From the IMG/VR virus record IMGVR_UViG_3300045988_126185, positions 1 through 30,991 of that record: a stretch of DNA of 30,991 bases. One strand, written 5' to 3'. The first letter of the stretch is position 1. Each line of letters begins with the position of its first letter. The stretch is from a virus. This document shows positions 1-30,991 of the stretch, piece after piece. Under the pieces are notes generated by a model. That model saw only the letters and a program-made list of their open reading frames with translations. It was not told the origin of the DNA and did not search any database. Position numbers and translations under genes: made by a program.

Positions 1-119
1 AGATTTTATAAATAATAATTTAAACTTGATATTAAGTATATTAGGAACAATTTTAACTGCTGTTGGTGGTTATATAGCTAAATTATATAAAAAGTATATA
101 AATGATAAACAAAAAAAAC
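1..119. repeat. Terminal direct repeat: bases 1-119 are identical to 30873-30991. This is consistent with an assembly overlap of a circular or terminally redundant genome.
   Basis: Exact sequence identity of window start and window end, read directly. Confidence 0.9.
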
Positions 120-319
120 AAATAGTTGAAGATACCGTTAAATATGTTGAACAAATAACAAAAGATATTTCTATATCTAGTGAAAATAAATTCAAAAAAT
201 GTAAAACAAAAGCTATTGAATGGTTAAATTCAAAAAATATAAAATTTAGTGATACTGAATTAGAGGTATTAATAGAAAGTGCCGTAAATGGCTTTAATAA
301 TTCTATTAATAAAAAATAA
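1..319 (+). CDS. Holin, 3' portion. The gene starts at 30868 and continues through the terminal repeat, giving about 107 aa in full.
   Basis: Small protein with a hydrophobic TM segment (LILSILGTILTAVGGYIA). It sits immediately upstream of the endolysin, and its N-terminus is found at 30868 preceded by an RBS (GGAGGAATAAT). Confidence 0.6.
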   Translation, partial: DFINNNLNLILSILGTILTAVGGYIAKLYKKYINDKQKKQIVEDTVKYVEQITKDISISSENKFKKCKTKAIEWLNSKNIKFSDTELEVLIESAVNGFNNSINKK

Positions 320-327
320 AGGAGTGA

Positions 328-1182
328 ATGAAAATGGAAATTAAAGAAAAATTAACTAAAGTAAATTATTGGCAAGGAAATGGTAATGGTGGAGCTAAAC
401 AAAATAAATATATAGTTATCCATTATGTTGGGGAAGTAAGCACTGCTTTAAATAATGCTAAGTATTTTGAAAATAGTTATAGAGGAGCTTCTGCACATTA
501 TTTTGTAGATGAAATTGATACTTATAGAGTAGTTAAAGATAGCGACTCTGCTTGGCATTGTGGTACTACAGGAGCTTATAAACACCCTGAATGTAGAAAT
601 ACAAACTCAATAGGTATTGAAATGTGTTGCTTTAACAATAATGGTACTTTAGATGTATCAAATAAAGTTGTTGAAAGAACAATAGAATTAACAAAAGAAT
701 TAATGGCAAAATATGGTATTAGTGCTGATAGAGTTTTAAGACATTATGATGTTACAGGTAAAAATTGTCCTGCTCCATTCGTTAGAGATGTTAATAGATG
801 GAATGATTTTAAAGCTAGAATAGGAGATACAAGCACACCAAGTGTTCCATCATCAAGTGGATGTGATCAAATTTTAAGAGTAGGTTCTGTAGTTAGAATT
901 GATAGACCATTAACAGTAACAGCAATAAGTGGTAATTTAATAGCTATTCAAGAATTAACTGGTAAACCTACTGCAAGTTATCATTGGTTCGACCCTACTA
1001 ATTTTGAGGTAGTTGAAGGGAATGTAGCTAAGCAAGTATGTTCAGTTGGTTGTAAAGTTAAATTACATGGAGAATATAGCGTTTTAGGTTTAGTAAAAAC
1101 TGAGGACTGGGCTTGTAAATTAAAAATAGGAAATAGAACTAATTGGGTATGGACTAATCCATGCTATGAAGTAAAAGACTAG
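328..1182 (+). CDS. Endolysin: N-acetylmuramoyl-L-alanine amidase (Amidase_2/PGRP-type catalytic domain) with a C-terminal cell-wall-binding region.
   Basis: Amidase_2 motifs (HYVGE, AHYFVD, SAWHCG, NSIGIEMC). RBS GGAGTGAATGAAA precedes the ATG, and the position follows the holin. Confidence 0.8.
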   Translation: MKMEIKEKLTKVNYWQGNGNGGAKQNKYIVIHYVGEVSTALNNAKYFENSYRGASAHYFVDEIDTYRVVKDSDSAWHCGTTGAYKHPECRNTNSIGIEMCCFNNNGTLDVSNKVVERTIELTKELMAKYGISADRVLRHYDVTGKNCPAPFVRDVNRWNDFKARIGDTSTPSVPSSSGCDQILRVGSVVRIDRPLTVTAISGNLIAIQELTGKPTASYHWFDPTNFEVVEGNVAKQVCSVGCKVKLHGEYSVLGLVKTEDWACKLKIGNRTNWVWTNPCYEVKD

Positions 1183-1200
1183 AAAATTTCTAGTTTTTTT
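1179..1200 (+). terminator. Rho-independent terminator after the endolysin gene.
   Basis: Hairpin CTAGAAA-ATT-TCTAG followed by TTTTTTT. Confidence 0.6.
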
Positions 1201-1230
1201 AATTTATTTTAATATTTTTTCAAAAATGTA

Positions 1231-1259
1231 TTGACAAAGTAATTACAATAGCGTATAAT
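1231..1259 (+). promoter_or_regulatory. Sigma-A type promoter P1 (TTGACA, 17-nt spacer, TATAAT) driving the early ORFan block.
   Basis: Exact consensus -35 at 1231-1236 and -10 at 1254-1259 with a 17-nt spacer. Confidence 0.7.
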
Positions 1260-1292
1260 CATAAGTGAAGTTAAGGGAAGGAGAAAAGAAAA

Positions 1293-1505
1293 ATGGAAAT
1301 TAACATGAAAAATTACAATTTAGAAAGTTTTAAAGAAAAAGATATTTATAGTTGGGAGGAGATAATAAGTATTATAGAAGACTTAGAATGTGAACTTCAT
1401 ATAAAAGAAGAAAAAATTGAAGAATTAGAAAATGATTTAGAAAGTAATTATAAAAAAATTTCACTAGCTGAACAATATGATATAAGTGATAGAGATTTTA
1501 TATAG
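1293..1505 (+). CDS. Hypothetical early protein (70 aa, acidic, coiled-coil-like).
   Basis: ORF with RBS GGGAAGGAG, first gene after P1. Confidence 0.5.
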   Translation: MEINMKNYNLESFKEKDIYSWEEIISIIEDLECELHIKEEKIEELENDLESNYKKISLAEQYDISDRDFI

Positions 1506-1517
1506 GAGGGAAATATA

Positions 1518-1637
1518 ATGGAAGAATTAAATAAAGAAATTGAAAGAGTCAAAATTGTGTTAGAAAATTATCTAACACAATATGACAACACAAAAGAAGA
1601 AATAGTAAAAGAAATAATAGAAAGAAGGAATAAATAA
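1518..1637 (+). CDS. Hypothetical small protein (39 aa).
   Basis: ATG preceded by TAGGAGGG; not in the ORF track because it is under 60 aa. Confidence 0.35.
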   Translation: MEELNKEIERVKIVLENYLTQYDNTKEEIVKEIIERRNK

Positions 1638-1933
1638 TGTTAAATCAAATAGTATTAGTTGGTCGATTAGTTCAAGACCCTGAAATAAAAGAACTAGAAA
1701 AGGTTGGCTATATAACTTTAGCAGTATCAAGAAGTTATAAAAATGCAAATGGAGAATATGATACTGATTTTATACCAGTTACTTTATTTAAAGGCATAGC
1801 TGAAAACACAAAAGTTTATTGTAAAAAAGGCGATATGGTTGATGTTAGAGGAAGAATAGAATGTGAAAATGGCAAAATAAATTTAATAGCCGAAAAAGTA
1901 TCGTTTTTATCAAGTAGAAAGGAAAGTGAATAA
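1637..1933 (+). CDS. SSB-like OB-fold protein, short form (98 aa) lacking an acidic C-terminal tail.
   Basis: N-terminus MLNQIVLVGRLVQDPE...DFIPVT...AEN...KKGDMVDVRGR matches the SSB signature. Confidence 0.6.
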   Translation: MLNQIVLVGRLVQDPEIKELEKVGYITLAVSRSYKNANGEYDTDFIPVTLFKGIAENTKVYCKKGDMVDVRGRIECENGKINLIAEKVSFLSSRKESE

Positions 1934-2415: not shown

Positions 2416-2588
2416 ATAATAAAATAGAATTAGAACAAGAACGTTTAGCTAAAATGAAATATTTATGTTCGAATATTCAAATGACATTAGAAAAGTACTT
2501 AAATATAAATAAAAAAATAGAACAAAAACAAGATAAAATAAATTTTCTTATAAAACTAAAAAAAGAGCTTGAAAAAATAGGGGAATGA
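2394..2588 (+). CDS. Hypothetical protein (64 aa).
   Basis: ORF overlapping its neighbours; coiled-coil-like. Confidence 0.3.
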   Translation: MQHQHKINNKIELEQERLAKMKYLCSNIQMTLEKYLNINKKIEQKQDKINFLIKLKKELEKIGE

Positions 2589-3214
2589 AAATGAAAAGAA
2601 AACTTAAAAAATGGGTTAAAATTTTAATTTTTATACTATTAATTATATTGATAATTATATTATTATTTTTCATTAAAAAAATAAATGTAAAAGAGCCAAT
2701 AAAAGAAAAAAATATAAATATAAAATATAAAAAGCATATTTATACAAATGAAAATTATCAATTACAAAATGAAATAGATAATTATTTAGAACAAAAAAGA
2801 ATTGAAGAAATTAAAAGAAAAGAAGAAGAAATAAAAAGATTAAATTCTATGAAAACTTATGAAACAAGATTAACGAGTTATTATTTAGGAGATAATACAG
2901 AAACAACGACTAAAACTGGTAGTGGATTAGATATTTACGATTTTGAAGTTAATAATAATGGTTGGTATACTTATCAAGGAAAGTTAGTTGTTGCGACTGC
3001 TACAAATTATCTTATAAAATATGGATTTGTATTAGGAGAAAATATTAAAACATATAAATATTATGATGAATTGGTTTTAAATATAGATGGTATTGATTAT
3101 CAAGCAATAGTTTTAGATAGCTGTGGTAGTTCAATGAAAACTGGAAGAATAGACTTGTTTGTTTCAAATAAAGAAAGTGTAAAAGATACAAAAATAATAG
3201 TAAAGGAGAAATAA
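2585..3214 (+). CDS. Membrane-anchored 3D-domain protein, a candidate peptidoglycan-binding or lytic-transglycosylase-like protein (YocH/MltA 3D family).
   Basis: N-terminal TM (ILIFILLIILIIILLFFI). C-terminal YYLGDNTETTTKTGSG...IVLDSCGSSMKTGRIDLFV resembles the 3D-domain Asp motifs. Confidence 0.5.
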   Translation: MKMKRKLKKWVKILIFILLIILIIILLFFIKKINVKEPIKEKNINIKYKKHIYTNENYQLQNEIDNYLEQKRIEEIKRKEEEIKRLNSMKTYETRLTSYYLGDNTETTTKTGSGLDIYDFEVNNNGWYTYQGKLVVATATNYLIKYGFVLGENIKTYKYYDELVLNIDGIDYQAIVLDSCGSSMKTGRIDLFVSNKESVKDTKIIVKEK

Positions 3215-3639: not shown

Positions 3640-3968
3640 ACGATAAATGTAAATATTGTGATTATGTTTCTAAATGTTCAAGAATATGTGAATATAATAG
3701 TATTCTATGTAGAGCACAAAGGAGTTTTCCAAAAGTAGTAGATAAATCTTATGAACAATTAAAACAAGAAAACCAACAACTAAAAGATAATTGGAATACG
3801 TTAAAAGAATATATAAAAGAAACTAAATTAAAGGAATTTGAAAAATCGTATGGTAAAAGATATGGTAAAAGATATGGGAAAACATTTACTCAAGCAGAAG
3901 TAGTAGTGTGTAATATGATTTTAGGTAAAATGCAAAAAATAGAACAAGGAAGTGATAGCAATGAATAG
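3636..3968 (+). CDS. Hypothetical Cys-rich protein (putative zinc-binding N-terminus, CKYCDYVSKCSRICEY), with a KRYG tandem repeat.
   Basis: ORF; 12-nt tandem repeat tatggtaaaaga at about 3841-3880. Confidence 0.4.
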   Translation: MNDKCKYCDYVSKCSRICEYNSILCRAQRSFPKVVDKSYEQLKQENQQLKDNWNTLKEYIKETKLKEFEKSYGKRYGKRYGKTFTQAEVVVCNMILGKMQKIEQGSDSNE

Positions 3969-4326
3969 AAGAATTAAAAAATTTATAAATAAATGTTATA
4001 ACAAAGAAAAAGATGCTTATTGTTGGATTAATACTAACAAAAAATTATCAGATGAAGAATTATCCGATATAGAAAAATATTTTAATGACAAAAATTATAA
4101 CTTCATGTTGATTATTAATGGTTGTTCACAATTAAGACCACAAAGAACATGTGGAACATTACCAACATTTTTAAAAGGAATTGATGGATGTCATACTATA
4201 TTTAAAAGTTCTTCAAATGCATTTATATTGTGCAGTTGGTTAGAGGATTATGATGAATATAAAGATGATATTAAAGAGTTGTTAGATTTACCTGATATTT
4301 TAGAAGTTAAAGCATTAAGGAAGTGA
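3952..4326 (+). CDS. Hypothetical protein (124 aa).
   Basis: ORF. Confidence 0.4.
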   Translation: MIAMNRRIKKFINKCYNKEKDAYCWINTNKKLSDEELSDIEKYFNDKNYNFMLIINGCSQLRPQRTCGTLPTFLKGIDGCHTIFKSSSNAFILCSWLEDYDEYKDDIKELLDLPDILEVKALRK

Positions 4327-4634
4327 TAGTAATGAATAAAGAAGATACATTAAAACAAATATGTAAAATGATTTCTAGTGGTGATATACCAAAAGTAGTA
4401 TATGATAAATATTTATCTAAAACACAATTGGGATTTATGAATTATGAAGAATTATATGATTTTTTAATGAACAAAACCAAAAAATACGAAGAAGTAATTG
4501 ATAAAATACAAAAACATTGTGAAATAGAAATAAATGCTTCTAATTATTATTTAAAAAATCATAATAGCCAAAAAGAATTATGTCATAAAGTTGCCCATCA
4601 AATAATTTTAGATATTTTAAAAGAGGTTGAATAA
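4323..4634 (+). CDS. Hypothetical protein (103 aa).
   Basis: ORF, overlap-coupled. Confidence 0.4.
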   Translation: MIVMNKEDTLKQICKMISSGDIPKVVYDKYLSKTQLGFMNYEELYDFLMNKTKKYEEVIDKIQKHCEIEINASNYYLKNHNSQKELCHKVAHQIILDILKEVE

Positions 4635-5106: not shown

Positions 5107-5799
5107 ATGGACAAAAAATCTTATTATGCTATAATACCAGCAAATGTAAGATATGATGATAATTTAAAAGATAAAGCTAAATTATTATATGGAGAAATAA
5201 CAGCTTTATGTAATGAAAAAGGATATTGTTGGGCAACAAATGAATATTTTGCTAATTTATACAATGTTAGCAAAACTACAATATCCACTTTGATTAAAAA
5301 TTTAATAGATAATGGATACATATATTCAAGTTTTATTTACAAAGAAAATTCAAAAGAAATTGATAAAAGAATATTAAGTATAACTAATGTACCCCCTTTA
5401 AAAAATTTTAAAGACCCCCTTAAAGAAAATTTAAAGACCCCTTTAAAAAATTTTAAAGACCCCCTTAAAGAAAATTTAAAGGATAATAATACAATTAATA
5501 ATACAATTAATAATAGTAATAGTTATTATTATATAGAAGAACAATTTGGAAGAACATTAGCACCTGTTGAATATACAAAAATTGATAAATGGAAAGAAAC
5601 TTTTTCAGATGATATTATTAATTATGCAACTGATATAGCTATATTAAATGGGGTTAAGAATTTTAATTATATTGATGGTATTATTAGAAACTGGAAAGAT
5701 AAAAATATAAAAAGCATTAAAGAATTAAAAAATGAAACTTTAATTGAAAAGTCAATAAAAAAAGAATTGTTTGATTACAATTGGTTAGAAGAAGAATAG
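5107..5799 (+). CDS. Replisome organizer or replication initiator (phage_rep_org_N-like wHTH N-terminus plus DnaD-like C-terminal domain).
   Basis: N-terminus YYAIIPANVRYD...LLYGEITALCNEKGYCWATNEYFANLYNVSKTTISTLIKNL. C-terminus DKWKETFSDDIINYATDIAI...NYIDGIIRNW is DnaD/DnaB_2-like. Internal direct repeats are present. Confidence 0.65.
   Translation: MDKKSYYAIIPANVRYDDNLKDKAKLLYGEITALCNEKGYCWATNEYFANLYNVSKTTISTLIKNLIDNGYIYSSFIYKENSKEIDKRILSITNVPPLKNFKDPLKENLKTPLKNFKDPLKENLKDNNTINNTINNSNSYYYIEEQFGRTLAPVEYTKIDKWKETFSDDIINYATDIAILNGVKNFNYIDGIIRNWKDKNIKSIKELKNETLIEKSIKKELFDYNWLEEE
5393..5481. repeat. Four tandem ~21-22-bp C-rich iterons (CCCC(C)TTTAAAAAATTTTAAAGAC alternating with CCCCTTAAAGAAAATTTAAAGAC) inside the replisome-organizer gene, followed by an AT-rich AATAATACAATTAAT x2 tract. 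Candidate origin of replication.
   Basis: Direct repeats read in the sequence. The poly-C runs are conspicuous in an AT-rich genome. Origins lie inside the initiator gene in lambda O and SPP1 gene 38. Confidence 0.5.
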
Positions 5800-6010: not shown

Positions 6011-6039
6011 TTGACAAATTGATAATAAAGTAGTATAAT
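6011..6039 (+). promoter_or_regulatory. Sigma-A type promoter P2 (TTGACA-17-TATAAT) for the recombination module.
   Basis: Exact consensus hexamers at 6011-6016 and 6034-6039. Confidence 0.7.
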
Positions 6040-6043
6040 GTTA

Positions 6044-6134
6044 TTAGTGTACAGGTTAAAGTAGATTTATTGTAGACAAGAAAACCTGTACACACTAAAA
6101 TAATTTCTTGTTTACAATAAGTCTATTTTTTATT
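6044..6134 (+). promoter_or_regulatory. Structured leader with two mutually exclusive hairpins, A (6044-6057 with 6083-6098) and B (6062-6080 with 6107-6125). Hairpin B is followed by TTTTTTATT, so this is a terminator/antiterminator switch.
   Basis: Interleaved inverted repeats read directly. B has a 17/19-bp stem plus a U-tract. A encloses B's 5' arm in its loop. Confidence 0.5.
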
Positions 6135-6146
6135 AGGAGGGATAAT

Positions 6147-6743
6147 ATGAAAGGATTTGAAAACGTATCGGTAGAAGTTGCCGAAGATTTAATAGAATTA
6201 ATTAATTCTATGAAAGGTTTAGAAAAGAGTTCTAAAGTAGAATATTCTGTTCAAAACAAAAAAGGAGAATGGTCAAAAAAAACATTTAACTATGTACCAT
6301 TGGACGATATTTTAAACAAAATAAAAGAAAATAATAATTTTGCTGTAATGCAACCTATTGGAGTTGATGATAATGGTGTTAATGGAGTTAAATGTATTTT
6401 AATACATAAATCAGGACATATATTTGAAACTAATACATTTCCATTTACTTCAACTGGAAGCAGTAAAATTCAAGATGAGGGTGCAGAAATAACATATCGT
6501 AAGAGATATAGTATAGGAGCATTCTTAGGAATGGCTACTGATGAAGATACTGATGGAAACGACCCAGAAGCAAGTAATAGTAGTATAAGATTTGCAACTG
6601 AAAATCAATTAAAATTGATTAATAAATTAGATACAAATATAAAAAATAAAATTTTAGAAAAATATAAAATAACTAAAATTGAAGAATTAAATATTAAACA
6701 AGCAAGTGAAATTATTTCAAATATGAAAGGAGAAAATAAATAA
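6147..6743 (+). CDS. erf: ERF-family single-strand annealing protein (recombinase).
   Basis: RBS AGGAGGG 5 nt upstream. ITYRKRYSIGAFLGMATDEDTDGND resembles the ERF core motif and acidic tract. The track ORF from 6108 includes the leader. Confidence 0.55.
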   Translation: MKGFENVSVEVAEDLIELINSMKGLEKSSKVEYSVQNKKGEWSKKTFNYVPLDDILNKIKENNNFAVMQPIGVDDNGVNGVKCILIHKSGHIFETNTFPFTSTGSSKIQDEGAEITYRKRYSIGAFLGMATDEDTDGNDPEASNSSIRFATENQLKLINKLDTNIKNKILEKYKITKIEELNIKQASEIISNMKGENK

Positions 6744-7060
6744 TGGAAAATGAATTAATGATAGTAGAAAATAATGAATTAGAATTAACAAAAGAAGGAA
6801 TTAAATTTATAAAAAAAGTTCAAAAAGCAAAGGTTGAACTTGCTAAAATGGAAGAACAATTAAAAGATATGTTTAAAGAAAAAATGGAAGAAAACGGTAT
6901 TAAAAAATACACAAGCCCTGATGGTACATTTAAAGCTACTTATTACGAAGAAACTGTTACAAATAGATTTGATAGTACTAAGTTTAAAAAAGAAAATGAA
7001 GAGCTTTATAATCAATATTTAAAACCATATAAAAGAAGTTCTTACATAAAATTCAATTAA
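6743..7060 (+). CDS. Hypothetical protein (105 aa).
   Basis: ORF, ATGA-coupled. Confidence 0.45.
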   Translation: MENELMIVENNELELTKEGIKFIKKVQKAKVELAKMEEQLKDMFKEKMEENGIKKYTSPDGTFKATYYEETVTNRFDSTKFKKENEELYNQYLKPYKRSSYIKFN

Positions 7061-7061
7061 T

Positions 7062-7625
7062 GTGTTAGAATTTATAGAAGAAAGCCATACTTACATATTA
7101 AATGGGGAAATAATACCATCTGTAACACAAATATTACAAGACTTATTTCCTCTTAAATATGATGGTGTTCCACAAGAAATATTAGATAATAAGGCTGAAT
7201 ATGGAACACAACTACATAAATTTATAGAAATAATAGAAAAAAAGAAACCTAAAAAACCTTTAGCATATATAAAACGATATTATAAGCCAAATATATACCA
7301 AGAAGAGAGTTTAAAAGATTATTTAAAAATAAAAGAAAAATATAATATAGTTATTACTGACAGTGAAAAAAGAGTTCATTACAAAAATAAATACTGTGGA
7401 ACATTAGATTTAAAAGGCTATGTTAATAATAAAAGTGCTATAATTGATATAAAAACTATTTACAAATTAGATGAATTATATGTCAGTTGGCAAAATAGTA
7501 TGTATGAATTAGCAGATGGTAAAGTAGACGAATTATATTGCTTATGGTTACCAAAAGGAAGATTAGGAAAATTAATTAAATTAGAAAGAATAGATAAAAA
7601 ATATTTATTAGCAATAATAGAATAG
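7062..7625 (+). CDS. PD-(D/E)XK family nuclease, a putative recombination exonuclease (GTG start).
   Basis: N-terminus HTYILNGEIIPSVTQIL and CGTLDLKGY...IIDIKT (D...D/E-x-K motif); lies within the recombination module. Confidence 0.5.
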   Translation: MLEFIEESHTYILNGEIIPSVTQILQDLFPLKYDGVPQEILDNKAEYGTQLHKFIEIIEKKKPKKPLAYIKRYYKPNIYQEESLKDYLKIKEKYNIVITDSEKRVHYKNKYCGTLDLKGYVNNKSAIIDIKTIYKLDELYVSWQNSMYELADGKVDELYCLWLPKGRLGKLIKLERIDKKYLLAIIE

Positions 7626-7637
7626 GAGGAATAAAGA

Positions 7638-8039
7638 ATGGAGTTTAAAATAGGAGAAAATTTAACAATATCACAATTACAAAGTGAAATAGATAAATTA
7701 TCAAATAAAGTAAGTAAAGAATATAACAATGTAATAAGCAATAGAGATAAAATAAATTATTTGAAAGAACAATTAAAAAAATTAAAAGAAGAAGAAAAGA
7801 ATAAACCAATTATTGATGAAACAGAAAAAAAATATTTAAAAGAAGTTATTAGACCATTTAAAGACAAAGTTGAATATATAAAAAAAATAATGAATCTTAA
7901 TAAAAGTAAAGAATATATATCTATAGGAATAGAATATGAACCATCTGTTGACCTCCCATATTTTGAAAAGAATAATATGTATGAAGGAATGGAAACAGGT
8001 AAGGAATATACATTAAAGGAGTTAGGTTTAGATGAATAA
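7638..8039 (+). CDS. Hypothetical protein (133 aa).
   Basis: ORF with RBS AGGAGG. Confidence 0.45.
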   Translation: MEFKIGENLTISQLQSEIDKLSNKVSKEYNNVISNRDKINYLKEQLKKLKEEEKNKPIIDETEKKYLKEVIRPFKDKVEYIKKIMNLNKSKEYISIGIEYEPSVDLPYFEKNNMYEGMETGKEYTLKELGLDE

Positions 8040-8445
8040 AGGAGTAATTGTTGGGAGATTAGTAAGAAATCCAGAATTAAGATATACAAGTTCAAATAAA
8101 GCAATTACAAAAATAACAATTGCTTGTAATAATTCAAAAGATGATACAACATTTTTAGATATAACAATATTTGGAAAAATGGCAGAAACAACTAACGAAT
8201 ATTGTCAAAAAGGAGATATTTTAGGAATAGAATACATAGTTAAAAATTACAATTGGGAAGATGAAGAAGGTAAAAGACACTTTACATATAATTTTATAGC
8301 TAATAGAGTAGAGTTTATATCAAAGGCTAGTAAATCTACTAACAAAGTAGAAATACCTCAAGAACAGGCTAAAAATAGTTTAAATAAAGATGTATTTGAT
8401 GAATTTGGAGATAGTGTTTCTATTGATGATAATTTTCTAGAATGA
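8032..8445 (+). CDS. ssb: Single-stranded DNA-binding protein with an acidic C-terminal tail.
   Basis: MNKGVIVGRLVRNPELRYT...ITIFGKMAE...KGD...; C-terminus ...DDNFLE matches the acidic SSB tail (DDDIPF-like). Confidence 0.7.
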   Translation: MNKGVIVGRLVRNPELRYTSSNKAITKITIACNNSKDDTTFLDITIFGKMAETTNEYCQKGDILGIEYIVKNYNWEDEEGKRHFTYNFIANRVEFISKASKSTNKVEIPQEQAKNSLNKDVFDEFGDSVSIDDNFLE

Positions 8446-8885
8446 GAGGTACAGTTAAACAATTAATTCCATATATGTTGGAATTAGATGATACTAAAAT
8501 ATATGAAGTAAAAGAATATAAAGAAAAAAGAAACTTAGACCAAAATGCTAAATATTGGAAGTTATTAAATGAACTTGCACTCACATTAAAAGTAGGAGTA
8601 GAAGAGTTACATTTTAAAATGTTAAAAGACTATTCACAAAGATATGAAATTCTAGTCCCTAAAGATATAAAATTAAGAGGAATTGACTATTATGAAAAAA
8701 AATCTAAAATAATTAGAAATGGTCAAGAATTTATAGTATATCAAATATTTACACCTAGCCATGAATTAAATACAAGAGAATTTGCATTATTATTACAAGG
8801 ATTATGTGATGAATGTAAAGAACAAGGAATTGAAACACTAAGTCCTAATGAATTAAAAAAGTTAGAAGAAATGATAAGAGGTTAA
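8442..8885 (+). CDS. ninB: NinB/Orf-family recombination mediator.
   Basis: NLDQNAKYWKLLNEL matches lambda Orf SLDQNRKLWACL. Confidence 0.5.
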   Translation: MRGTVKQLIPYMLELDDTKIYEVKEYKEKRNLDQNAKYWKLLNELALTLKVGVEELHFKMLKDYSQRYEILVPKDIKLRGIDYYEKKSKIIRNGQEFIVYQIFTPSHELNTREFALLLQGLCDECKEQGIETLSPNELKKLEEMIRG

Positions 8886-8887: not shown

Positions 8888-9106
8888 ATGAAAAAAACAC
8901 AAAAAGAATTAATTGAAAAACATTTATTAAAAAAAGGTAAAATAACAAGTTGGGAAGCATTTAAAAGATATGGAATAACAAGATTATCACATATAATTTA
9001 TCTATTAAGAAAAGAAGACTATAATATTAAAAGTGTAAGTACTACTAAAAAAAATAGATATGGACATTATTGTACTTATAGCACATATACATTAGAAAAT
9101 GACTAA
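8888..9106 (+). CDS. Winged-HTH DNA-binding protein (HTH_36/HTH_39-like).
   Basis: ITSWEAFKRYGITRLSHIIYLLRKEDYNI motif. Confidence 0.4.
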   Translation: MKKTQKELIEKHLLKKGKITSWEAFKRYGITRLSHIIYLLRKEDYNIKSVSTTKKNRYGHYCTYSTYTLEND

Positions 9107-9386
9107 ACAAGAAAAATTAGTATATGAAAAAATAACCGAAGAACAACCATATTGCCAATTATGTGGTAGTACAAGCTATTTACATAGACACCACATTTAT
9201 TATAGAAGTCAATTAGGTTTAACGGTAGAAAAAAATATAATAGTATTATGTGATAAATGTCATAGATTAGTACATTCAAATAAAAAAGAATGGCAACCTA
9301 AGTTATTAGAAATTCAATATAAAAAATATGGCTATTTTGCAAAGGAAGAAGTCATTAAATGTAAGAAATATGGAAAAATAGCATGA
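9099..9386 (+). CDS. HNH endonuclease domain protein (zinc-binding).
   Basis: CQLCG...HRHHI...N..IVLCDKCH..VH, an HNH-type motif. Confidence 0.5.
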   Translation: MTKQEKLVYEKITEEQPYCQLCGSTSYLHRHHIYYRSQLGLTVEKNIIVLCDKCHRLVHSNKKEWQPKLLEIQYKKYGYFAKEEVIKCKKYGKIA

Positions 9387-9697: not shown

Positions 9698-9727
9698 TTG
9701 ACATTGTTATTAATAATGTGATATAAT
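9698..9727 (+). promoter_or_regulatory. Sigma-A type promoter P3 (TTGACA-17-TATAAT with extended TGn) flanked by candidate operator repeats.
   Basis: Consensus hexamers at 9698-9703 and 9722-9727, with TG at 9719-9720. Inverted repeat TATCACATTA (9625-9634) with TAATGTGATA (9714-9723). Direct repeat GTGAGTTTG x2 (9676-9684, 9692-9700). Confidence 0.65.
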
Positions 9728-16637: not shown

Positions 16638-16662
16638 CATATAAAATAATATATGTTATAAT
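16634..16662 (+). promoter_or_regulatory. Sigma-A type promoter P4 (TTGACA-17-TGtTATAAT) upstream of the morphogenesis genes.
   Basis: Exact consensus hexamers at 16634-16639 and 16657-16662, with extended TG. Confidence 0.7.
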
Positions 16663-23320: not shown

Positions 23321-23802
23321 ATGAACGGTGGCGAGGTAGTATTTCATTTTAAAGGCAACGATAAAGATTTGGATAAAAAAACAAGTGAATTAAGTTCTAA
23401 ACTTGGAAATATTGGTAAATCTATCGGTGGAGCATTTTTAAAAGGTACAGCAGTGGCTGGGGCTTCGCTAACAGCTATGGTAGGAGCTAGCGTTAAAGCT
23501 TTTGCTAATGTAGAACAGTCAATAGGTGGTGTTGAAACATTGTTTAAAGATAGTGCTTCAACAGTTATAGCCAATGCAAAAAAAGCTTACACGACGGCTG
23601 GAGTAAGTGCTAATGATTATATGGAGCAGGTAACTTCATTTAGTGCTAGTTTATTACAGTCTCTAGGTGGAGATACAGCTAAGGCAGCAGAATACGCCGA
23701 TAGAGCAATAGTTGATATGTCAGATAATGCTAATAAAATGGGTACATCTATGGAAATGATACAAAATGCATATCAAGGTTTCGCAAAACAAAATTATACG
23801 AT
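23321..23802 (+). CDS. Tape measure protein, exon 1.
   Basis: Conserved TMP N-terminal region ending ...NAYQGFAKQNYT. The unspliced frame terminates at a TAA 17 nt later. Confidence 0.7.
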
Positions 23803-24118
23803 AAAATTAATGTCTGCTTAATTAGTGATAATTAAGTAAGTGTATGTGAACCTTATCAAGGGTGTGAGATTAAAATATAAGTAGGAAATGACTTGTTGAG
23901 ATAATCTTGCTAACTGGGGAAGCCTAAGTCTAAAAGATATGGTTATCCAGTGCCAAGCCTATAAATAGGAAGGTCAAACGACTATGAGTTCGTTACTCAG
24001 TACATTTACTATTGATACGTAAATGGAAGTGCATACTATCTCAAATGTGAGATAAAGATATAGTCTAATCCCACTTTTAAATAAGTGTTAAAGTACTAGG
24101 AAACTAGGGGTATAAATG
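23803..24118 (+). ncRNA. Group I self-splicing intron (no ORF) interrupting the tape-measure gene.
   Basis: Exon junction restores the conserved ...QNYT-M-LDNLKLGYGG. U before the 5' splice site; terminal G (omega-G). Internal group I R-like (ACGACUAUGA) and S-like (AAGAUAUAGUCU) elements that can form P7. P/Q-like CUGGGGAAGCC / AUCCAGUGCC. The 5' boundary is ambiguous by 9 nt (23803 or 23812). Confidence 0.7.
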
Positions 24119-25991
24119 GTTAGATAATTTGAAGCTTGGATATGGTGGTACAAAAGAAGAGATGGCAAGGCTTATAAAAGACGCTTCTAAAATGACCGAT
24201 GTACAAAAAGAATTAAATGTATCGGTTAAAGATGGAGATATGTCATTTGGTAATATAGTTAATGCTATTTCCGTAATGCAAAAGAAAATGGGTATAGCAG
24301 GAACAACTACAAAAGAAGCTTCCGAAACAATAAGCGGGTCTATCAATAGTGCTAAAGCAAGTTTTCAAAACTTTTTAGCAGGTACTGGTTCAATAGACCA
24401 AGTTATTTCAACTTTTTCAACAGCTGGGCAAAATATAATGAAAGCTATTGTTAAGATGGCACCAGATATAATTGATGGAATAGTCACTTTAATAAATGCA
24501 ATTGTACCACAAATACCAGCACTAGTTGGAGCTTTACTACCAACTGTTATAAATGGTATTTCTTCACTTATAAGTGGCTTAGCTGGGGCTTTGCCAGAAT
24601 TATTAAAAGTATTAATGGATACATTAATAGAACAAGGACCGATAATATTACAAACATTAATGGATAGTGTTTTAGATATAGTTTATTCTCTTTCTGATAC
24701 ATTACCAACATTAATACCACAAATAGTTAAAGCCATAATGACTTTATTACCAGTATTATTGAGTAATATGCCAGCTTTTATGAAAGCAGGAATTGAATTA
24801 ATAATGGCTGTGATAAATGGATTAGTTGATAGTATTCCTATTTTAATTGATATGCTACCAGATTTAATAGAAGAATTGGTTAATGGTCTTATATCTGCAC
24901 TACCTATGCTATTAGGTGTAGGAATGGCTATAAATATAAAACTTGCACAAGCAATTATTAAAGCAGTGCCAAAATTAATAAGTTCTATACCAAAAATTAT
25001 TAATTCTTTAGTAGAAGGATTTAAAAAAGGAGTATCAAATTTTGCCTTTGTAGGTAAAAGTTTAATTGATGGATTAGGCTCAGAAATAACAACAGGTGCG
25101 TCACAATTAGGTCAAAAAATATTAACATCTGTAACAAATTTCTTTACTAAAACTATACCTTCAATATTTAATAATTTTGTTTCATTCTTAGCTAGTATTC
25201 CTGCAAAAATAGGGGAATTTGTGCAAGGAGTTATATCATTTATTGGGCAAATACCTTACTATGTAGGATATGCAATAGGGTATGTAATAGGATTTATTGC
25301 TTCTATACCTTTTAGATTATGGGAAATTTTAACTTCTGCAGTAGAAAAAGTAAAAGAGTTCGGGATTTCAATATGGACATGGATAACTGTTGATTTACCA
25401 CAAATAATACAAGGTATCATCAACTGGTTTGCACAATTACCAGGTAGAATATGGACATGGCTAACAACTACTATATCAAATTTTGCTACATGGTTAGGAA
25501 ATATGAAAACTAAAGCAGTTGAAGGAATTAAAAAAGTTGCAAATTCAATTGTAAATGGGTTCAAATCTTTACCAGATAAAATATTCAATGTAGGTAAAAA
25601 CCTTATCCGTGGATTATGGAACGGTATAGTAGGAATGAAAGATTGGATTAGTGGAAAGGTTAAAGGATTTGCTTCTGGAGTTATAAATGGATTTAAAAAA
25701 TCGTTCGGAGTTCATAGTCCGTCACGTGAGTTTGCTATAATAGGTAGATTTAATATGCTAGGATTAGAAAAAGGTATGGAAGATATGCAACCTGATTTAC
25801 AAAAATCAATAAATGGTATGTTTGATTTATCGCCTAGTTTATATGGTTCTACAAGTAATAATTTAAGTCCAAATATAAATGTAACAGTAAATAATAACAT
25901 GAAACAAGACCCACTAGGACAAATGATTAATGATGTTAAAACTTTCTCTGGTGGCTCTAAAAACGATTATAGTTATGGAATGGGAGTGTAG
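24119..25991 (+). CDS. Tape measure protein, exon 2.
   Basis: Open frame from 24108. (M)LDNLKLGYGGTKEEMARL... is the conserved TMP continuation, and the frame is contiguous with exon 1 after removing 316 nt. Confidence 0.7.
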
Positions 25992-25994: not shown

Positions 25995-27488
25995 ATGATA
26001 CAAATGTATATAAATGATGAAGAAGTAGTATGCAGTAAGGAATTTACTATAAGTGAAGAAATGCTTGTTACTTCTTCTACCGTTCTTAACAATTGTTATC
26101 CTAAAAGTTGGGAAGAAAATCAAGATTATGTAAATAACTTTTATTATCCTGAAGATTATTCAAAATTAAAGATATTAAAAGATAATGTGCTTATATTTTG
26201 TGGTGTTGTTAAAAATACTGGGGAAATTAGTTTAAACCCTAGATATCCACATTTTTGTAGTTTACAGATATTAGATTTTAAAACATTTTTATCAGAGGGA
26301 GAAACACTTGATTTTGTAATAGCTAATAAAACTATTGGAGAAGCTATTGAAATGATAGTGAATGCTGTTAGTGATTATGGCTTTGTATTAGGTAATATTA
26401 ATATTTATGGAATAGACGACATTATAGGTGCCTATTCTACACAAAATAAAACAGCTTATGATGTCTTTCAATATATAGCAGACATTACACAAAGTAAATG
26501 GACTACAAGAATGGTTGACGAAAATACCGTTGCAATAGACTTTTACGACCCTACTTTATTACCTAGAGCAAACAATATAAAATATAATCTACAATATTTT
26601 GAAGAAAATAATATAAAGGATTTATCTTTTAGCTATGGAACTAGAGATTATAGAAACAAACAGGTAATGCTTTCAAATGAAGTATATGCGTCAATAGATT
26701 ATACCGATAATATAATAGCCGATGGATATACAAGAACTTTTACAGCACAAGAAAAAATAGGAATAATAAAAAGTATAAAGGTTGGTGGAGATAGTAAAAC
26801 ATTCGCCACTAATAATGATAAAGATTTAGGAGTTGACGCAAACTTTTACTATACACCTGGGGAAAAAAATGTTGATAGTAATCCCAACGACCCTATTTAT
26901 GGAACAGGATTAGAAATTACAATTGAATATACGCCAATAGTTCAAGGTAGACAAATTGTTTATGATAATGACGAAGTAACTAGAGTTAGTAATAATACTG
27001 GGAGAAAAGGTGTTATTGCTAGGTATGAAAATAGAAATGATGTATTAAGCAGTGATGAATTAAATAAAATAGGGCAAACTTATTTAAGATATAAAGGTAC
27101 GCCTGAAATAAAACTAACAGTTGTAACTAAAGATAAAGACATTTTTAATATAGGAGAGATAGCTTATTTTGAAGCACCTATACAAGAATTGCAAGCCGAT
27201 TATATGGTTAAAAAGAAAGAAACACAAATAATAACTACAGCAGGTTATAACAATATATTTTATACTTATGAATTAACATCTAATTTTAATAGTGAAAATG
27301 CTGTAAACTGGTTTGATAATCAAAGAAATAAAGCTACTGGTAATATAGGACAAGGAGAATATATAGCCCGTAATATAGATATAGAAAATACGGCTAATAT
27401 CATTTTTAAAAATTTAGTTGTTACTGAAGTAGAAACACAAGGAGATAATATATTGAATTGCGTAATAGAAAGTCCATTTAATAATTAG
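25995..27488 (+). CDS. Distal tail protein (Dit) candidate.
   Basis: Position immediately after the TMP; 497 aa. Confidence 0.45.
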   Translation: MIQMYINDEEVVCSKEFTISEEMLVTSSTVLNNCYPKSWEENQDYVNNFYYPEDYSKLKILKDNVLIFCGVVKNTGEISLNPRYPHFCSLQILDFKTFLSEGETLDFVIANKTIGEAIEMIVNAVSDYGFVLGNINIYGIDDIIGAYSTQNKTAYDVFQYIADITQSKWTTRMVDENTVAIDFYDPTLLPRANNIKYNLQYFEENNIKDLSFSYGTRDYRNKQVMLSNEVYASIDYTDNIIADGYTRTFTAQEKIGIIKSIKVGGDSKTFATNNDKDLGVDANFYYTPGEKNVDSNPNDPIYGTGLEITIEYTPIVQGRQIVYDNDEVTRVSNNTGRKGVIARYENRNDVLSSDELNKIGQTYLRYKGTPEIKLTVVTKDKDIFNIGEIAYFEAPIQELQADYMVKKKETQIITTAGYNNIFYTYELTSNFNSENAVNWFDNQRNKATGNIGQGEYIARNIDIENTANIIFKNLVVTEVETQGDNILNCVIESPFNN

Positions 27489-27498: not shown

Positions 27499-29406
27499 AT
27501 GACAAATGATTTTAAAAAAACTTTACTACAATATTTTACTGGTAATCTTGAAAAGGATACAGGTGTAACAAAAGAAATAATACAAAAAATAAGTTCTATA
27601 CCTTTAAGTGATTTTGATGGTTATTATGTTCCAAATAGCAAGCTAACAATACGTGGAATGGTAAGAGATAGTAGTAGTGGTAATGTTGTATTATATGGTG
27701 GATATGAAGATGGTAATATCTTAAAAGGTATAATAATAGTATTAAATCAAGATTTTAAACCTTTAAAAGTATTTTATAAATTTTCGAGTGGTACAGATTT
27801 AAGATATATCCATAGTATGAACCAAGATGAAAGTGGTAATTATTATTACATAGATAGTAATACCTTAGGGAGTACAACAGCCGAAAGAAGATTAGTTTTA
27901 GTAAATAATGTAAGTCAAAGTAGTAGTGTAACATTAAGAAAGACTTATTCTTTTCCAAGCGGATATAATGATTTTTATTGCTATAATGTATATAAAGATG
28001 TTAATAGTGCTAATTATGTTTTCGTTGGAACTAAACCACCAGATTATGACGATTTTAAAATAATATCCGTAAAAATAGATGTTGGTACAACTAATGAATG
28101 GAAACAATGGAATTCATCGGGTGGTTGGATATTAGGAGATAGTTTTGTTAATTTTGATAGTGATGGTAATTTATTTTGCGAAACTATTATAACACGTTCA
28201 ATGAATAACGCTAGCACTCTTAATGCTGTTTCAATTTGGAAAAAAGACTATACTAGCAATGATTTTACTCTATCTAATCTAAATATACCTTTTGACTACA
28301 AACCTTACATAGATAATGACAATTATCATAATCAAAGTGTATTTATTAATAAAGATGAAGTATATTTTGTTAGTACTAATCAGTCGATATTCTTACGTGA
28401 TGTTATAGAAAATAAATATATAGAATTATATTATTATAATTTAAGCACTAATGAATACAAGAAAATATATAGTAAATTTTTAGGGGAATATGTTGAATGT
28501 GATTTAGAAGCTATTTATTTAAACAAAAATCAAAATGATGTATATATTCAATATAATGTTATTCAAGATGGAACACCGATAGCAGATTATTACTTTCAAA
28601 GATACGTTGATAGATGGTTTCCGTTAAAAATAGCTGATAAACAACCGTTTTATCATGGAACAAGATTATTATATATAAATAACACTTATAACCTAGTCAA
28701 TGCTTATATGATTAGTACTACTTTTGATAGTTTATATTGGAGCGTTTATAATATTTTAGAAATATATAATAAAAATAACTTTAACGGAGAAACTTATATA
28801 AATACAAATAGTTTAATACCAAATTCAAGTGTTTTATATAATGAAAATAATGATGTTGTATTTGCAAGAAATTTATATAATAAAACTATAAGTGAAAGAA
28901 CAACACAAGCAACTTTAGAGATACCTAACAATTATTTAAACGATGTAATGATAGCCAAACAAAATTTAATAAGTGAAACTAATTTAACAATGGTAGAAAA
29001 TCAAAATACTGTTACTAAAAATGTTTATGAAACAGTTTATTTGAATTTTATCAATACATTACAAATGATTAATAATAATAATGAAGAAAATCCAATATTA
29101 AATTCAAATGGCGCAATAAGGTTAAATAACAGTATATCTAATCTTATAGATTATGATAATTCAAAAATAGGTAAAGCAAAAATAAATTTTGAAGATGGAA
29201 CAAGCTCTATTATTCCTATAGCATTCACACAAAATGGAAATGTTATGAGAACAGAGTTTACTATAACAGTTGATAAGAACATAACTAATATTCAATTATT
29301 GAGTAATGATGAAACTACAATTTATCAAACAATAGAAACTCAATTATCAATAAATAAAACATATACAATTTCCCAAGACGTAACAGTTGAGGGAGTTCAA
29401 TTATAA
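27499..29406 (+). CDS. Tail-associated / baseplate protein (Tal) or receptor-binding protein candidate.
   Basis: Position after Dit; 635 aa, Asn/Tyr-rich beta-type composition. Confidence 0.4.
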   Translation: MTNDFKKTLLQYFTGNLEKDTGVTKEIIQKISSIPLSDFDGYYVPNSKLTIRGMVRDSSSGNVVLYGGYEDGNILKGIIIVLNQDFKPLKVFYKFSSGTDLRYIHSMNQDESGNYYYIDSNTLGSTTAERRLVLVNNVSQSSSVTLRKTYSFPSGYNDFYCYNVYKDVNSANYVFVGTKPPDYDDFKIISVKIDVGTTNEWKQWNSSGGWILGDSFVNFDSDGNLFCETIITRSMNNASTLNAVSIWKKDYTSNDFTLSNLNIPFDYKPYIDNDNYHNQSVFINKDEVYFVSTNQSIFLRDVIENKYIELYYYNLSTNEYKKIYSKFLGEYVECDLEAIYLNKNQNDVYIQYNVIQDGTPIADYYFQRYVDRWFPLKIADKQPFYHGTRLLYINNTYNLVNAYMISTTFDSLYWSVYNILEIYNKNNFNGETYINTNSLIPNSSVLYNENNDVVFARNLYNKTISERTTQATLEIPNNYLNDVMIAKQNLISETNLTMVENQNTVTKNVYETVYLNFINTLQMINNNNEENPILNSNGAIRLNNSISNLIDYDNSKIGKAKINFEDGTSSIIPIAFTQNGNVMRTEFTITVDKNITNIQLLSNDETTIYQTIETQLSINKTYTISQDVTVEGVQL

Positions 29407-29444
29407 AGGAGTGATAAAATGAAACATAAACTAATAGTTAACAT

Positions 29445-29451
29445 GGGGGGG
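29445..29451. repeat. G7 homopolymeric tract followed by a 7-bp hairpin (TGTGTTA/TAACACA) in the Tal-fibre intergenic region.
   Basis: Read directly; a poly-G run is unusual in this AT-rich genome. Confidence 0.5.
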
Positions 29452-29494
29452 TGTGTTATTTAATTAACACATTCTCCAAAAAGGAGAATGAAAT

Positions 29495-29971
29495 ATGGAT
29501 ATGATTACCTATGCCGATAAAATAGCATTGAATGAAAATCCTGAAATTCAAGAAAATAATAAAATAACAGCTGAAAATATGAATGAAATAAAAACCGTTG
29601 TAAACAATTTTATAAATGATGTTATTTCTAATAGAATACAACAAGATATTACAACAAACGGTAATCCTGTTAAATGCGGATATAAAATAGATAATAAAGA
29701 TGTGTATGTAAAGCGTTATTCAAGTCCGTTTAATGGACAAACAGCAACATTTGCTTATGGATTAGAAAATATAACTATTACAGATATTTCAGGTTATTAT
29801 GCTAATGCTAATTTCTCGTCGGTGTTCCCTTTACCATCAATAAGAACACAATTTGCAGATTATACAACTGAAATTTATATTGCTAATGGTAATGTAAATA
29901 TAAACACTGCTAATGTTGGAAGAGATGGATTTACGGCATACGTATATATATATTTTACATATAATGATTAA
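29495..29971 (+). CDS. Tail fibre / receptor-binding protein paralog 1.
   Basis: N-terminal domain MDMITYADKIALNENPEI...NMNEIKTVVN is paralogous to the next gene. Strong RBS. Confidence 0.45.
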   Translation: MDMITYADKIALNENPEIQENNKITAENMNEIKTVVNNFINDVISNRIQQDITTNGNPVKCGYKIDNKDVYVKRYSSPFNGQTATFAYGLENITITDISGYYANANFSSVFPLPSIRTQFADYTTEIYIANGNVNINTANVGRDGFTAYVYIYFTYND

Positions 29972-29987
29972 TTAAATAACAAATTTA

Positions 29988-30542
29988 ATGCAAATAACAT
30001 ATGAAGATAAAGTAGCATTGAATGAAAATACAGGAATTGCAGATATAAATAAAGTTAAAGCAGACGATATGAATATGATAAAAAGTGTTGTAAATGCTAA
30101 TCAAGAAGATGTAGGAGATATTTCAAATTTAAAAACAAAAGATATCACAAGTATAGTAAATGCTGCAAATGAAATAGAAGAGGAAAATTATTATTCTACT
30201 GAAGAAAAACAAATTGGAAAATGGATAGATAATAAACCTTTATATAGAAAAACATTTGTAATAGATGGTAATTCGTCACCACAACAACAAAGTTATCAAT
30301 TTGATTTAGCTTCATTAAACTGGGAAACAGTAACTTTAATATATGGAACTACTTATCAAGAAACAAACTCTTATTATAGAGATTTACATAATGCTTATGC
30401 TTATGATAGTACGGCAACTAATGAATATTCTGGAGCTTGGACTAGTGGTACTCTTTTACGTGTTCGTTCTCGTGGGATAGCAGTTACTAAATTCTACGTA
30501 ACTTTAGAATATACAAAAACAACTGATAGCCCTTCAAATTAA
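29988..30542 (+). CDS. Tail fibre / receptor-binding protein paralog 2.
   Basis: N-terminus MQITYEDKVALNENTGI...DMNMIKSVVN shares a domain with the upstream gene. The C-terminus is divergent. Confidence 0.45.
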   Translation: MQITYEDKVALNENTGIADINKVKADDMNMIKSVVNANQEDVGDISNLKTKDITSIVNAANEIEEENYYSTEEKQIGKWIDNKPLYRKTFVIDGNSSPQQQSYQFDLASLNWETVTLIYGTTYQETNSYYRDLHNAYAYDSTATNEYSGAWTSGTLLRVRSRGIAVTKFYVTLEYTKTTDSPSN

Positions 30543-30572
30543 AATGTCATAATGACTAGAAAGGAATAAAAA

Positions 30573-30857
30573 ATGGAAAAAGAAGAACTAAAAATATTAT
30601 ACGATACAGAAGCACGTTCAAAATCTAACACTAAAAGAATAGATGAACAAGATAAAAAAATAAATAATCTTGAAAAAACTTATTCTATTATGGAAAAAAT
30701 GGATTTTAGAATGGGAAAAGTTGAAAATGCTGTTGAAAGAATTGATACAAAATTAGAAAATAGTGAAAAGCAAAAAAGCATGAAGTGGGATAAATTAATT
30801 GATTATTTATTTTATGCAATACTTGCTTACGCTTTATTTAGATTAGGTTTAAAATAG
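30573..30857 (+). CDS. xhlA: XhlA-like lysis-associated membrane protein (haemolysin XhlA family).
   Basis: Coiled-coil N-terminus plus C-terminal TM LIDYLFYAILAYALFRLGL; position immediately upstream of holin and endolysin, as in the PBSX xhlA-xhlB-xlyA arrangement. Confidence 0.5.
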   Translation: MEKEELKILYDTEARSKSNTKRIDEQDKKINNLEKTYSIMEKMDFRMGKVENAVERIDTKLENSEKQKSMKWDKLIDYLFYAILAYALFRLGLK

Positions 30858-30867
30858 GAGGAATAAT

Positions 30868-30991
30868 ATGATAGATTTTATAAATAATAATTTAAACTTG
30901 ATATTAAGTATATTAGGAACAATTTTAACTGCTGTTGGTGGTTATATAGCTAAATTATATAAAAAGTATATAAATGATAAACAAAAAAAAC
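30868..30991 (+). CDS. Holin, 5' portion (continues at window base 120 via the terminal repeat).
   Basis: ATG at 30868 with RBS AGGAGG. Its sequence from 30873 onward is identical to window 1-119, which continues in frame to the stop at 319. Confidence 0.6.
   Translation, partial: MIDFINNNLNLILSILGTILTAVGGYIAKLYKKYINDKQKK

Follow-up and report, generated by a model that had tools for sequence, protein, structure and literature searches.

Is a phage that carries a ParB-like gene and no evident lysogeny module strictly lytic, or could it be kept by its host as a non-integrating plasmid-prophage? This question is raised by the 30,991-nucleotide stretch of IMG/VR virus record IMGVR_UViG_3300045988_126185 (positions 1 to 30,991; this whole stretch is called the window below), for which a first-pass annotation had proposed the former and allowed for the latter. 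By our reading, the phage encodes no recognisable means to integrate, no recognisable repressor switch, and no partition system, and it is most likely virulent or 'de-lysogenised', or, at the least, incapable of integration and of sustained repression. Taken as a whole, the explanation we consider probable is that of a lysogeny-free member of a mosaic phage family, most likely virulent, in which the ParB_N protein serves as an accessory of the DpdA-like DNA transglycosylase encoded beside it. From the earlier 'strictly lytic' proposal, the absence of lysogeny genes stands, and is conserved in relatives, while the lifestyle itself stays a deduction from that absence, beyond proof by sequence, and three of the arguments offered for it prove weak or wrong.

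The first 119 bases of the window are identical to the last 119 (30873–30991), as expected of a circular molecule assembled with k=119, and the identical sequence is recorded as a 30,991-bp k=119 contig (ENA ERZ27261103 k119_213914) as well as in the Logan assembly of ERR1137076. Given these identical ends on a k=119 contig, the genome is 30,872 bp long and circularly closed. That it is circular had been stated in the first-pass annotation, along with the equally correct remarks that all genes lie on one strand and that there is no tRNA. In fact, the 56–57 open reading frames (ORFs) are all on the plus strand and account for a coding share of 93.7%, and ARAGORN counted zero tRNAs across the window, where Rfam likewise gave no match at gathering thresholds. 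The six longest minus-strand ORFs, of 80–115 amino acids (aa), are nested within plus-strand genes and matched no Pfam family. Genetic code 4, which would suit a Mycoplasma-like host, was ruled out, as TGA terminates 11 genes and the standard bacterial code thus applies. The window, with a GC content of 26.2% and a strong G>C and A>T skew over the entire plus strand, thus holds the full genome of a phage that is siphovirus-like and belongs to an uncultured low-GC gut Firmicute, and the binning of its relatives into metagenome-assembled genomes (MAGs) points to a host among the 'Bacilli', 'Tenericutes', or Erysipelotrichaceae.

For the Pfam and PHROGs scans, the ORFs were joined into ten pseudo-proteins. 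Covering all ORFs, these scans returned no Phage_integrase, Resolvase/Recombinase, excisionase, HTH_3/CI, Cro, or antirepressor match, and none to ParA, ParM, protelomerase, or plasmid Rep, nor was a toxin-antitoxin gene recognised. NCBIfam and PADLOC scans also gave no integrase, recombinase, excisionase, or CI/Cro pair. When 20 early ORFans were scanned individually against profiles at E≤1, nothing credible emerged beyond a weak RHH_3 match for the ORF at 1933–2151. Moreover, the integrases, repressor, and Cro protein of relatives, used as phmmer and tblastn queries, found no match in the window below E=1.7 and no remnant. Except for one 209-aa predicted membrane protein, early ORFs that match neither Pfam nor PHROGs do not exceed 158 aa and therefore fall short of the size of a tyrosine integrase or a large serine recombinase; for a serine recombinase of the small resolvase type, it is the lack of profile matches, and not size, that rules it out. 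Hence, the profile search of all ORFs for recombinases and repressors that had been proposed as a check has now been run with nothing found, and the earlier statement that the genome lacks an integrase and a recombination directionality factor is borne out.

The arrangement of the lysis/early junction, the usual site of a lysogeny module, together with the promoters and the two small putative DNA-binding proteins that enter the argument, is as follows.

1–119, no strand, terminal overlap identical to 30873–30991 (k=119 circularisation signature)
30868–30991, plus strand, 5' part of the holin gene (Phage_holin_6_1), which wraps around the contig end to 1–319 (Pfam/PHROGs)
328–1182, plus strand, endolysin (Amidase_2), the final gene of the late operon (Pfam/PHROGs)
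1173–1204, plus strand, hairpin with a T-run behind it, at the stop codon of the endolysin gene (repeat search, inverted repeat I3)
1231–1259, plus strand, candidate sigma-70 promoter 1, TTGACA-17-TATAAT, before the first early gene (consensus search)
1293–1505, plus strand, first early ORF, a coiled-coil-like ORFan of 70 aa
1933–2151, plus strand, ORF of 72 aa, weak ribbon-helix-helix candidate (RHH_3, E 0.17)
6011–6039, plus strand, candidate sigma-70 promoter 2, intergenic (consensus search)
8888–9106, plus strand, small winged-helix protein (HTH_39), not of CI/Cro type (Pfam)
9698–9727, plus strand, candidate sigma-70 promoter 3 with extended -10 TG, intergenic (consensus search)
16634–16662, plus strand, candidate sigma-70 promoter 4 (consensus search)

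At this junction, only the hairpin and the promoter at 1231 lie within the 110 bp that lead up to the early gene at 1293, a gap in which a lysogeny module would not fit. The hairpin is a probable terminator of the late operon; it came from the repeat search, as a consensus terminator scan gave nothing useful in this AT-rich genome. Perfect sigma-70 promoters (TTGACA-N16–18-TATAAT) number exactly four on the plus strand and zero on the minus strand, against an expectation of 0.07 per strand and with four reached in 0 of 1000 Markov simulations, and all four are intergenic or at a gene end. No divergent promoter pair was found at the lysis/early junction or among the consensus promoters, which, with the empty HTH_3/CI and Cro searches, upholds the earlier view that a CI/Cro-type divergent switch is missing. 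The four consensus promoters suggest that transcription relies wholly on the host RNA polymerase. If they function as their host-type sequences predict, transcription would run one way, from the early ORFans through replication and recombination genes (DnaD-like, Erf, exonuclease, SSB, and NinB) to ParB_N, DpdA, and YhhQ, and, after this DNA-modification cassette, through the packaging, head, and tail genes to the lysis genes.

As for phages of established lifestyle, a megablast search revealed no related genome among 50,697 phage records, the only matches being stretches of 64–82 nt over the 3' end of an intron (described below). The large terminase subunit (TerL) is at most 26% identical to that of any isolated phage, and the protein in the portal position gave no tblastn match in the 50,697 records and, in PLSDB, no relative among 72,556 plasmids. 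With no cultured relative, a lifestyle is not transferable from an isolate, and the structural module is, on these comparisons, very divergent from those of all cultured phages. The family was therefore followed in metagenomes. In IMG/VR, 125 candidate stretches were confirmed via a TerL profile, of which the best 80 loci were kept (relatives bear L numbers here), and a conserved tail protein is common to 32 IMG/VR loci at 54–69% identity. Moreover, 14 related contigs from GTDB MAGs originate from human gut, cattle, and rumen, in bins labelled Tenericutes, Bacilli, Clostridia, or Erysipelotrichaceae. Most of these GTDB relatives are stand-alone, phage-only contigs of 32–35 kb rather than host-flanked prophages, and the only longer one, the distantly related L041 of 45.9 kb, has a large serine recombinase at its end.

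Lysogeny genes are indeed found elsewhere in the family. In locus L031, a cassette comprises an integrase of the tyrosine type (PF00589, 2e-27) on the minus strand, an HTH_3 repressor, and, on the plus strand, a DUF739/Cro-like gene. This cassette follows immediately after the lysis genes and an HNH gene on the minus strand, i.e., it lies at the lysis/early junction. In the sister loci L029 and L030, 0.86 kb of unrelated plus-strand ORFs replace the 2.3-kb block of L031, with flanks that are 71–81% identical. Tyrosine-integrase sequences occur in seven more loci (L067, as a fragment, L101, L106, L109, L118, L121, and L135), and in at least L106 and L109 the integrase is on the plus strand upstream of TerL, beside minus-strand ORFs that include a Cro-like gene. 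Altogether, integrases of the tyrosine or serine type are borne by at least nine of the more distant family members. Long minus-strand ORFs of relatives, also considered as hidden integrases, were set aside, since their position suggests antisense frames of the tape-measure gene.

Nearer to the window, nine near-complete close relatives were stitched (28.6–31.7 kb, with TerL 61–68% identical), leaving out the stitched cluster L007/L013/L097/L102, which joined two different contigs. Among the ORFs of at least 120 aa in these nine that the window does not share, there is no recombinase or repressor; rather, these encode methyltransferases, HNH endonucleases, lysins, and BspA-like proteins, along with RecT, a sigma-70-like factor, an S-adenosylmethionine (SAM)-synthetase-like protein, and a second Vut_1. 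Two loci from other human gut samples (L141 and L142), ~96% identical to the window over the fetched regions, have the same lysis-to-early junction and no lysogeny genes, and the same early protein turns up in a Hadza gut sample, on a short contig. Since lysogeny genes are absent and their absence is kept in the closest relatives, a non-temperate lifestyle is most likely. The family thus gains and loses the lysogeny module, and the sub-lineage of the window is without it. This family is large and mosaic. Some members have a lysogeny cassette on the minus strand, made up of a tyrosine integrase with cI and cro or of a large serine recombinase and mostly placed between the lysis module and the early one; other members lack the cassette or have other sequence in its stead.

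Two stitched relatives have proteins without a window counterpart. In L006+L100 (stitched 3949–4521 and 7372–8223), these are the sigma-70-like factor (Sigma70_r2/r4) and the SAM-synthetase-like protein, and in L033+L092 (25143–26303), BspA/DUF285 leucine-rich-repeat proteins.

The plasmid-prophage idea derives from the ParB-like gene, which heads a predicted DNA-modification cassette.

11225–11701, plus strand, stand-alone ParB_N protein (ParB/Srx-fold) of 158 aa (Pfam/PHROGs/PADLOC/NCBIfam)
11698–12441, plus strand, phage-type DpdA-like (TGT-like) DNA transglycosylase (phrog_887, 1e-58; weak DpdA matches)
12553–13131, plus strand, YhhQ/Vut_1 queuosine-precursor (preQ0/preQ1) transporter (Pfam; TIGR00697)

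Hypermodification genes had thus been seen rightly at 11225–13131. Such genes do not separate lytic from temperate phages, and the support for virulence that was drawn from them falls away. The same applies to an 'anti-defence-like' early region, where no anti-defence family was matched and the genes are ORFans. In the 158-aa ParB-like protein, the ParB_N match is confined to the first ~90 residues. Its TIGR00180 score is 42 bits (cutoff 58.45), with alignment to the N-terminal half of the model only, and no profile recognised a helix-turn-helix (HTH) or dimerisation domain. The best ParB_N match is instead the N-terminal domain of type II DNA methyltransferases (PADLOC MTase_II, 1e-24; phrog_498). 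Moreover, the ParB_N stop overlaps the DpdA start by 4 nt, such that the two genes are translationally coupled, and ParB_N lies immediately 5' of DpdA in seven of the eight other DpdA-bearing loci. The trio of ParB_N, DpdA, and YhhQ, with an identical DpdA protein, recurs in other samples. Elsewhere in the family, ParB_N is often fused to, or upstream of, an N6_N4 methyltransferase (about a dozen cases), and relatives have ParB_N-methyltransferase fusions at the genomic position of the cassette. ParB_N would thus be a module common to two kinds of enzyme that modify DNA. As a separate observation, in L098 and L099 (ORFs at ~7257–7934 and 6676–7353), the stand-alone ParB_N is followed by a 225-aa ABC-type P-loop ATPase in place of DpdA or a methyltransferase. 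No parS-like repeats were found in the three intergenic regions checked, and no genome-wide repeat search was made.

The partner enzyme matches phrog_887 ('queuine tRNA-ribosyltransferase') at 1e-58, scores 22.9 bits against the NF041059 model of DpdA (cutoff 200), and reaches 1e-5 with the PADLOC DpdA model; on these scores, it is a phage-type relative and not the bacterial equivalog. The YhhQ-like protein, with 100.9 bits for TIGR00697 (queuosine precursor transporter, cutoff 50.95), is accompanied by no match to the preQ0 synthesis proteins FolE, QueC, QueD, and QueE in the Pfam and PHROGs scans of all window ORFs. Having such a transporter and no preQ0 synthesis genes, the phage would salvage a 7-deazaguanine precursor by means of the transporter it encodes. 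Phages with DpdA but without preQ0 synthesis genes, some of which have YhhQ, form a recognised group (PMC6884629), and, according to Hutinet et al., such DpdA-only phages rely on a host or exogenous precursor (PMC6392294, PMC6884629, and PMC10164549, cited jointly). Bacterial DpdA requires DpdB, a ParB-fold ATPase (PMC10164549), and a ParB-like ORF beside phage DpdA was earlier proposed as a DpdB homologue (PMC6392294). By analogy, the ParB-like gene of the window is most likely an accessory for DNA modification and not a partition gene. Here, ParB_N and DpdA would together place a scavenged 7-deazaguanine base in the phage DNA, in parallel with DpdB assisting bacterial DpdA.

Could the phage nonetheless be temperate without integrating, as an episomal phage-plasmid with the ParB-like protein in partition? 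A ParB_N domain is certainly present, the PHROGs label reads 'ParB-like partition protein', and relatives occur as stand-alone contigs (~32–34 kb) binned into MAGs. Yet only the N-terminal domain of ParB is there, with a sub-cutoff TIGR00180 score, and ParA/ParM, plasmid Rep, and protelomerase are unmatched, with no repressor or toxin-antitoxin recognised. The portal-position protein, moreover, is without a relative in the 72,556 plasmids. As the domain is a bare ParB_N with no ParA, coupled to DpdA here and fused to methyltransferases in relatives, the plasmid-prophage idea put forward in the first-pass annotation loses its only support, and we regard this explanation as exceedingly improbable. 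A composite of several ideas, namely an integrase-free temperate episome in gut Bacilli in which ParB_N segregates or clamps DNA besides its DpdA role and the 1933–2151 or 8888–9106 protein is the repressor, also seems very improbable. Alternatively, the phage might be a cryptic temperate one, in which a small ribbon-helix-helix or winged helix-turn-helix repressor is combined with host recombination (e.g., of the Xer type) or with an unrecognised ORFan recombinase. Many early ORFans are uncharacterised, the family has temperate members, and the two small proteins are candidates, with the 72-aa ORF at 1933–2151 giving the weak RHH_3 signal (E 0.17) and an AlphaFold (AF2) model in which an extended N-terminus is followed by helices, and with a winged helix at 8888–9106. 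Against this stand the low confidence of that model (predicted local distance difference test, pLDDT, 65; predicted TM-score, pTM, 0.34), the sizes of the unmatched early ORFs (at most 158 aa, bar the 209-aa membrane protein) and their lack of a recombinase match, and the absence of divergent promoters or of any lysogeny-gene remnant, the strong promoters all being co-directional. Lysogeny genes are also lacking in the nine near-complete relatives and in the 96%-identical genomes. The ORF at 1933–2151 is itself co-directional with the early operon, and its homologues are all near-identical. We judge a cryptic temperate phage to be improbable. Rather unlikely, too, is that the phage lacks lysogeny genes and yet persists in its gut host in a carrier state or by pseudolysogeny, as proposed for other integrase-less gut phages. 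Near-identical genomes do recur in several human gut samples, relatives co-bin with host MAGs, and the window has no lysogeny genes; even so, no window gene points specifically to chronic carriage, which sequence cannot separate from lytic growth.

Several points weigh against a lysogeny-free, virulent phage with ParB_N as a DpdA accessory, which is the explanation we prefer. Missing recognisable genes are not proof of a lifestyle, and the host is uncultured. The relatives occur in MAG bins, possibly through a likeness in composition, yet an episomal element would look alike. Roughly 20 small early ORFans carry no assigned function, and the 1933–2151 protein may be a ribbon-helix-helix DNA binder for which a repressor role is conceivable in principle, just as the winged-helix protein at 8888–9106 could in principle be a transcription repressor. 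As for the accessory role, the ParB_N protein does not match the PADLOC DpdB model, the DpdA lies far below the bacterial equivalog cutoff, and the analogy to DpdB is one of fold family and gene linkage only.

In itself, a phage without lysogeny genes is an ordinary result. For automated lifestyle prediction, for typing, and for therapeutic interest, it is more relevant that a ParB_N Pfam match beside or fused to DNA-modification enzymes is not to be taken as a marker of lysogeny or of a plasmid, and that lifestyle in this abundant uncultured gut phage family would be a property of each genome, with integrase cassettes swapped at one junction. Modestly useful by-products are the alternation of methyltransferase and DpdA as ParB_N partners, the salvage cassette of DpdA and YhhQ, and a mobile intron in the tape-measure gene. 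The remaining features of the window are listed below.

1637–1933, plus strand, short SSB paralogue (Pfam/PHROGs)
5107–5799, plus strand, DnaD-like replication initiator or helicase loader (HTH_36 + DnaB_2; Pfam/PHROGs/NCBIfam)
6108–6743, plus strand, Erf-type single-strand annealing protein (Pfam/PHROGs)
7062–7625, plus strand, exonuclease (phrog_298)
8032–8445, plus strand, SSB (Pfam/PHROGs)
8442–8885, plus strand, NinB/Orf-like recombination mediator (phrog_72; weak Pfam NinB match)
9099–9386, plus strand, HNH endonuclease (Pfam/PHROGs)
13492–13857, plus strand, DUF1064 protein, labelled Holliday junction resolvase in PHROGs (Pfam/PHROGs)
14678–16072, plus strand, large terminase subunit (23–26% identity to annotated terminases)
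16148–16637, plus strand, degenerate NUMOD4/NUMOD1 homing-endonuclease remnant (Pfam/PHROGs, translation read by eye)
17106–18467, plus strand, putative portal protein (position only, no family match)
18471–19445, plus strand, minor head protein (Phage_min_cap2; Pfam/PHROGs)
20105–21265, plus strand, putative major capsid protein with a C-terminal Ig-like He_PIG domain (position; Pfam for He_PIG)
23321–23802, plus strand, tape-measure gene exon 1 (PHROGs, allele comparison)
23803–24118, plus strand, group I intron (RF00028, allele comparison)
24119–25991, plus strand, tape-measure gene exon 2, with a spliced product of 784 aa (PHROGs, allele comparison)
25995–27488, plus strand, conserved tail protein in the distal-tail position, the family marker in searches for relatives
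27499–29406, plus strand, putative variable tail fibre or receptor-binding protein (position)

No Pfam, PHROG, or NCBIfam family assigns the proteins in the portal and capsid positions. The 209-aa early protein at 2585–3214 has an N-terminal transmembrane helix, and its C-terminal segment (…AIVLDSCGSSMKTGRIDLFV…) looks by eye like a 3D/DPBB (MltA-like) cell-wall domain, without Pfam support. The largest non-coding gap (13858–14241, 384 bp) is just 5' of the packaging genes and contains a 30-nt inverted repeat (14055–14084 and 14192–14221), and 25-nt direct repeats are found at 14215–14239 and 14254–14278, of which the second copy runs into the ORF starting at 14242. A pac/cos function, or one in late regulation, is conceivable for this gap. 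The NUMOD4/NUMOD1 HNH remnant is flanked by the terminase and portal genes, and in it the catalytic HNH segment is deleted and the frame is split into two ORFs.

A group I intron of 316 nt (23803–24118) interrupts the tape-measure gene and matches RF00028 over the full model (1–253) with 48.3 bits (gathering score 50) and an E-value of 3.6e-11. A U precedes the 5' splice site and a G is the last intron base. Removal of the intron joins the exons (23321–23802 and 24119–25991) into a 784-aa protein with 759 of 784 residues identical to the uninterrupted 784-aa gene of L141, and the nucleotide alignment to this intronless and 96% identical locus breaks at 23802 and 24115. The gene runs uninterrupted across the junction in 22 loci. 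Copies of the intron are 94–97% identical across relatives whose adjoining tail protein is ~59–69% identical, which argues for recent homing, and synonymous differences cluster next to the insertion site; the intron thus appears to have been recently mobile. Six intron copies carry an extra insertion at intron position 244/245, of ~0.5 kb in L008, L011, L039, and L047 and of ~70 bp in L006 and L018, and this may be a homing-endonuclease ORF or its remnant. Moreover, over 64–67 nt, the 3' core of the intron is 91–97% identical to regions of Staphylococcus phages (Kayvirus/Silviavirus) annotated as (intron-encoded) endonuclease.

Compared with known systems, the intron resembles those of Staphylococcus Kayvirus/Twort-like phages in its full-length RF00028 match, its conserved 3' core, and the existence of intron-plus and intron-minus alleles, but it sits in the tape-measure gene of an unrelated gut siphovirus, and the window copy is without a homing-endonuclease ORF. 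With the ParB proteins of the plasmid-prophages P1 and N15, the window protein shares the ParB N-terminal (ParB/Srx) fold family, though there is no ParA, no recognised HTH or dimerisation domain, and the context is DNA modification. With Dpd systems and DpdA-only phages, the window has in common a TGT-like DpdA beside a ParB-fold protein, and its YhhQ-type transporter in the absence of preQ0 synthesis genes matches the phage group of Hutinet et al. In contrast to bacterial DpdB, the ParB_N protein is 158 aa long, lacks the C-terminal helical domain, and is closest to the ParB_N of phage methyltransferases. For the genome as a whole, the nearest parallel is the pair of Streptococcus thermophilus phages, virulent Sfi19 and temperate Sfi21, reportedly described through comparative genomics by the Bruessow laboratory. 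There is no detectable sequence relationship with these dairy Siphoviridae, the host here is an uncultured low-GC gut bacterium, and in the gut family, whose lifestyles are deduced from sequence, integrases of at least two kinds and two genome architectures occur. Nevertheless, the order of modules (lysis, lysogeny, replication, packaging, head, and tail) is alike, virulent members are all one-stranded in both, and virulent and temperate members differ mainly in whether the lysogeny module at the lysis/early junction is kept or has been deleted or replaced, as is seen here between L031 and its sisters L029 and L030.

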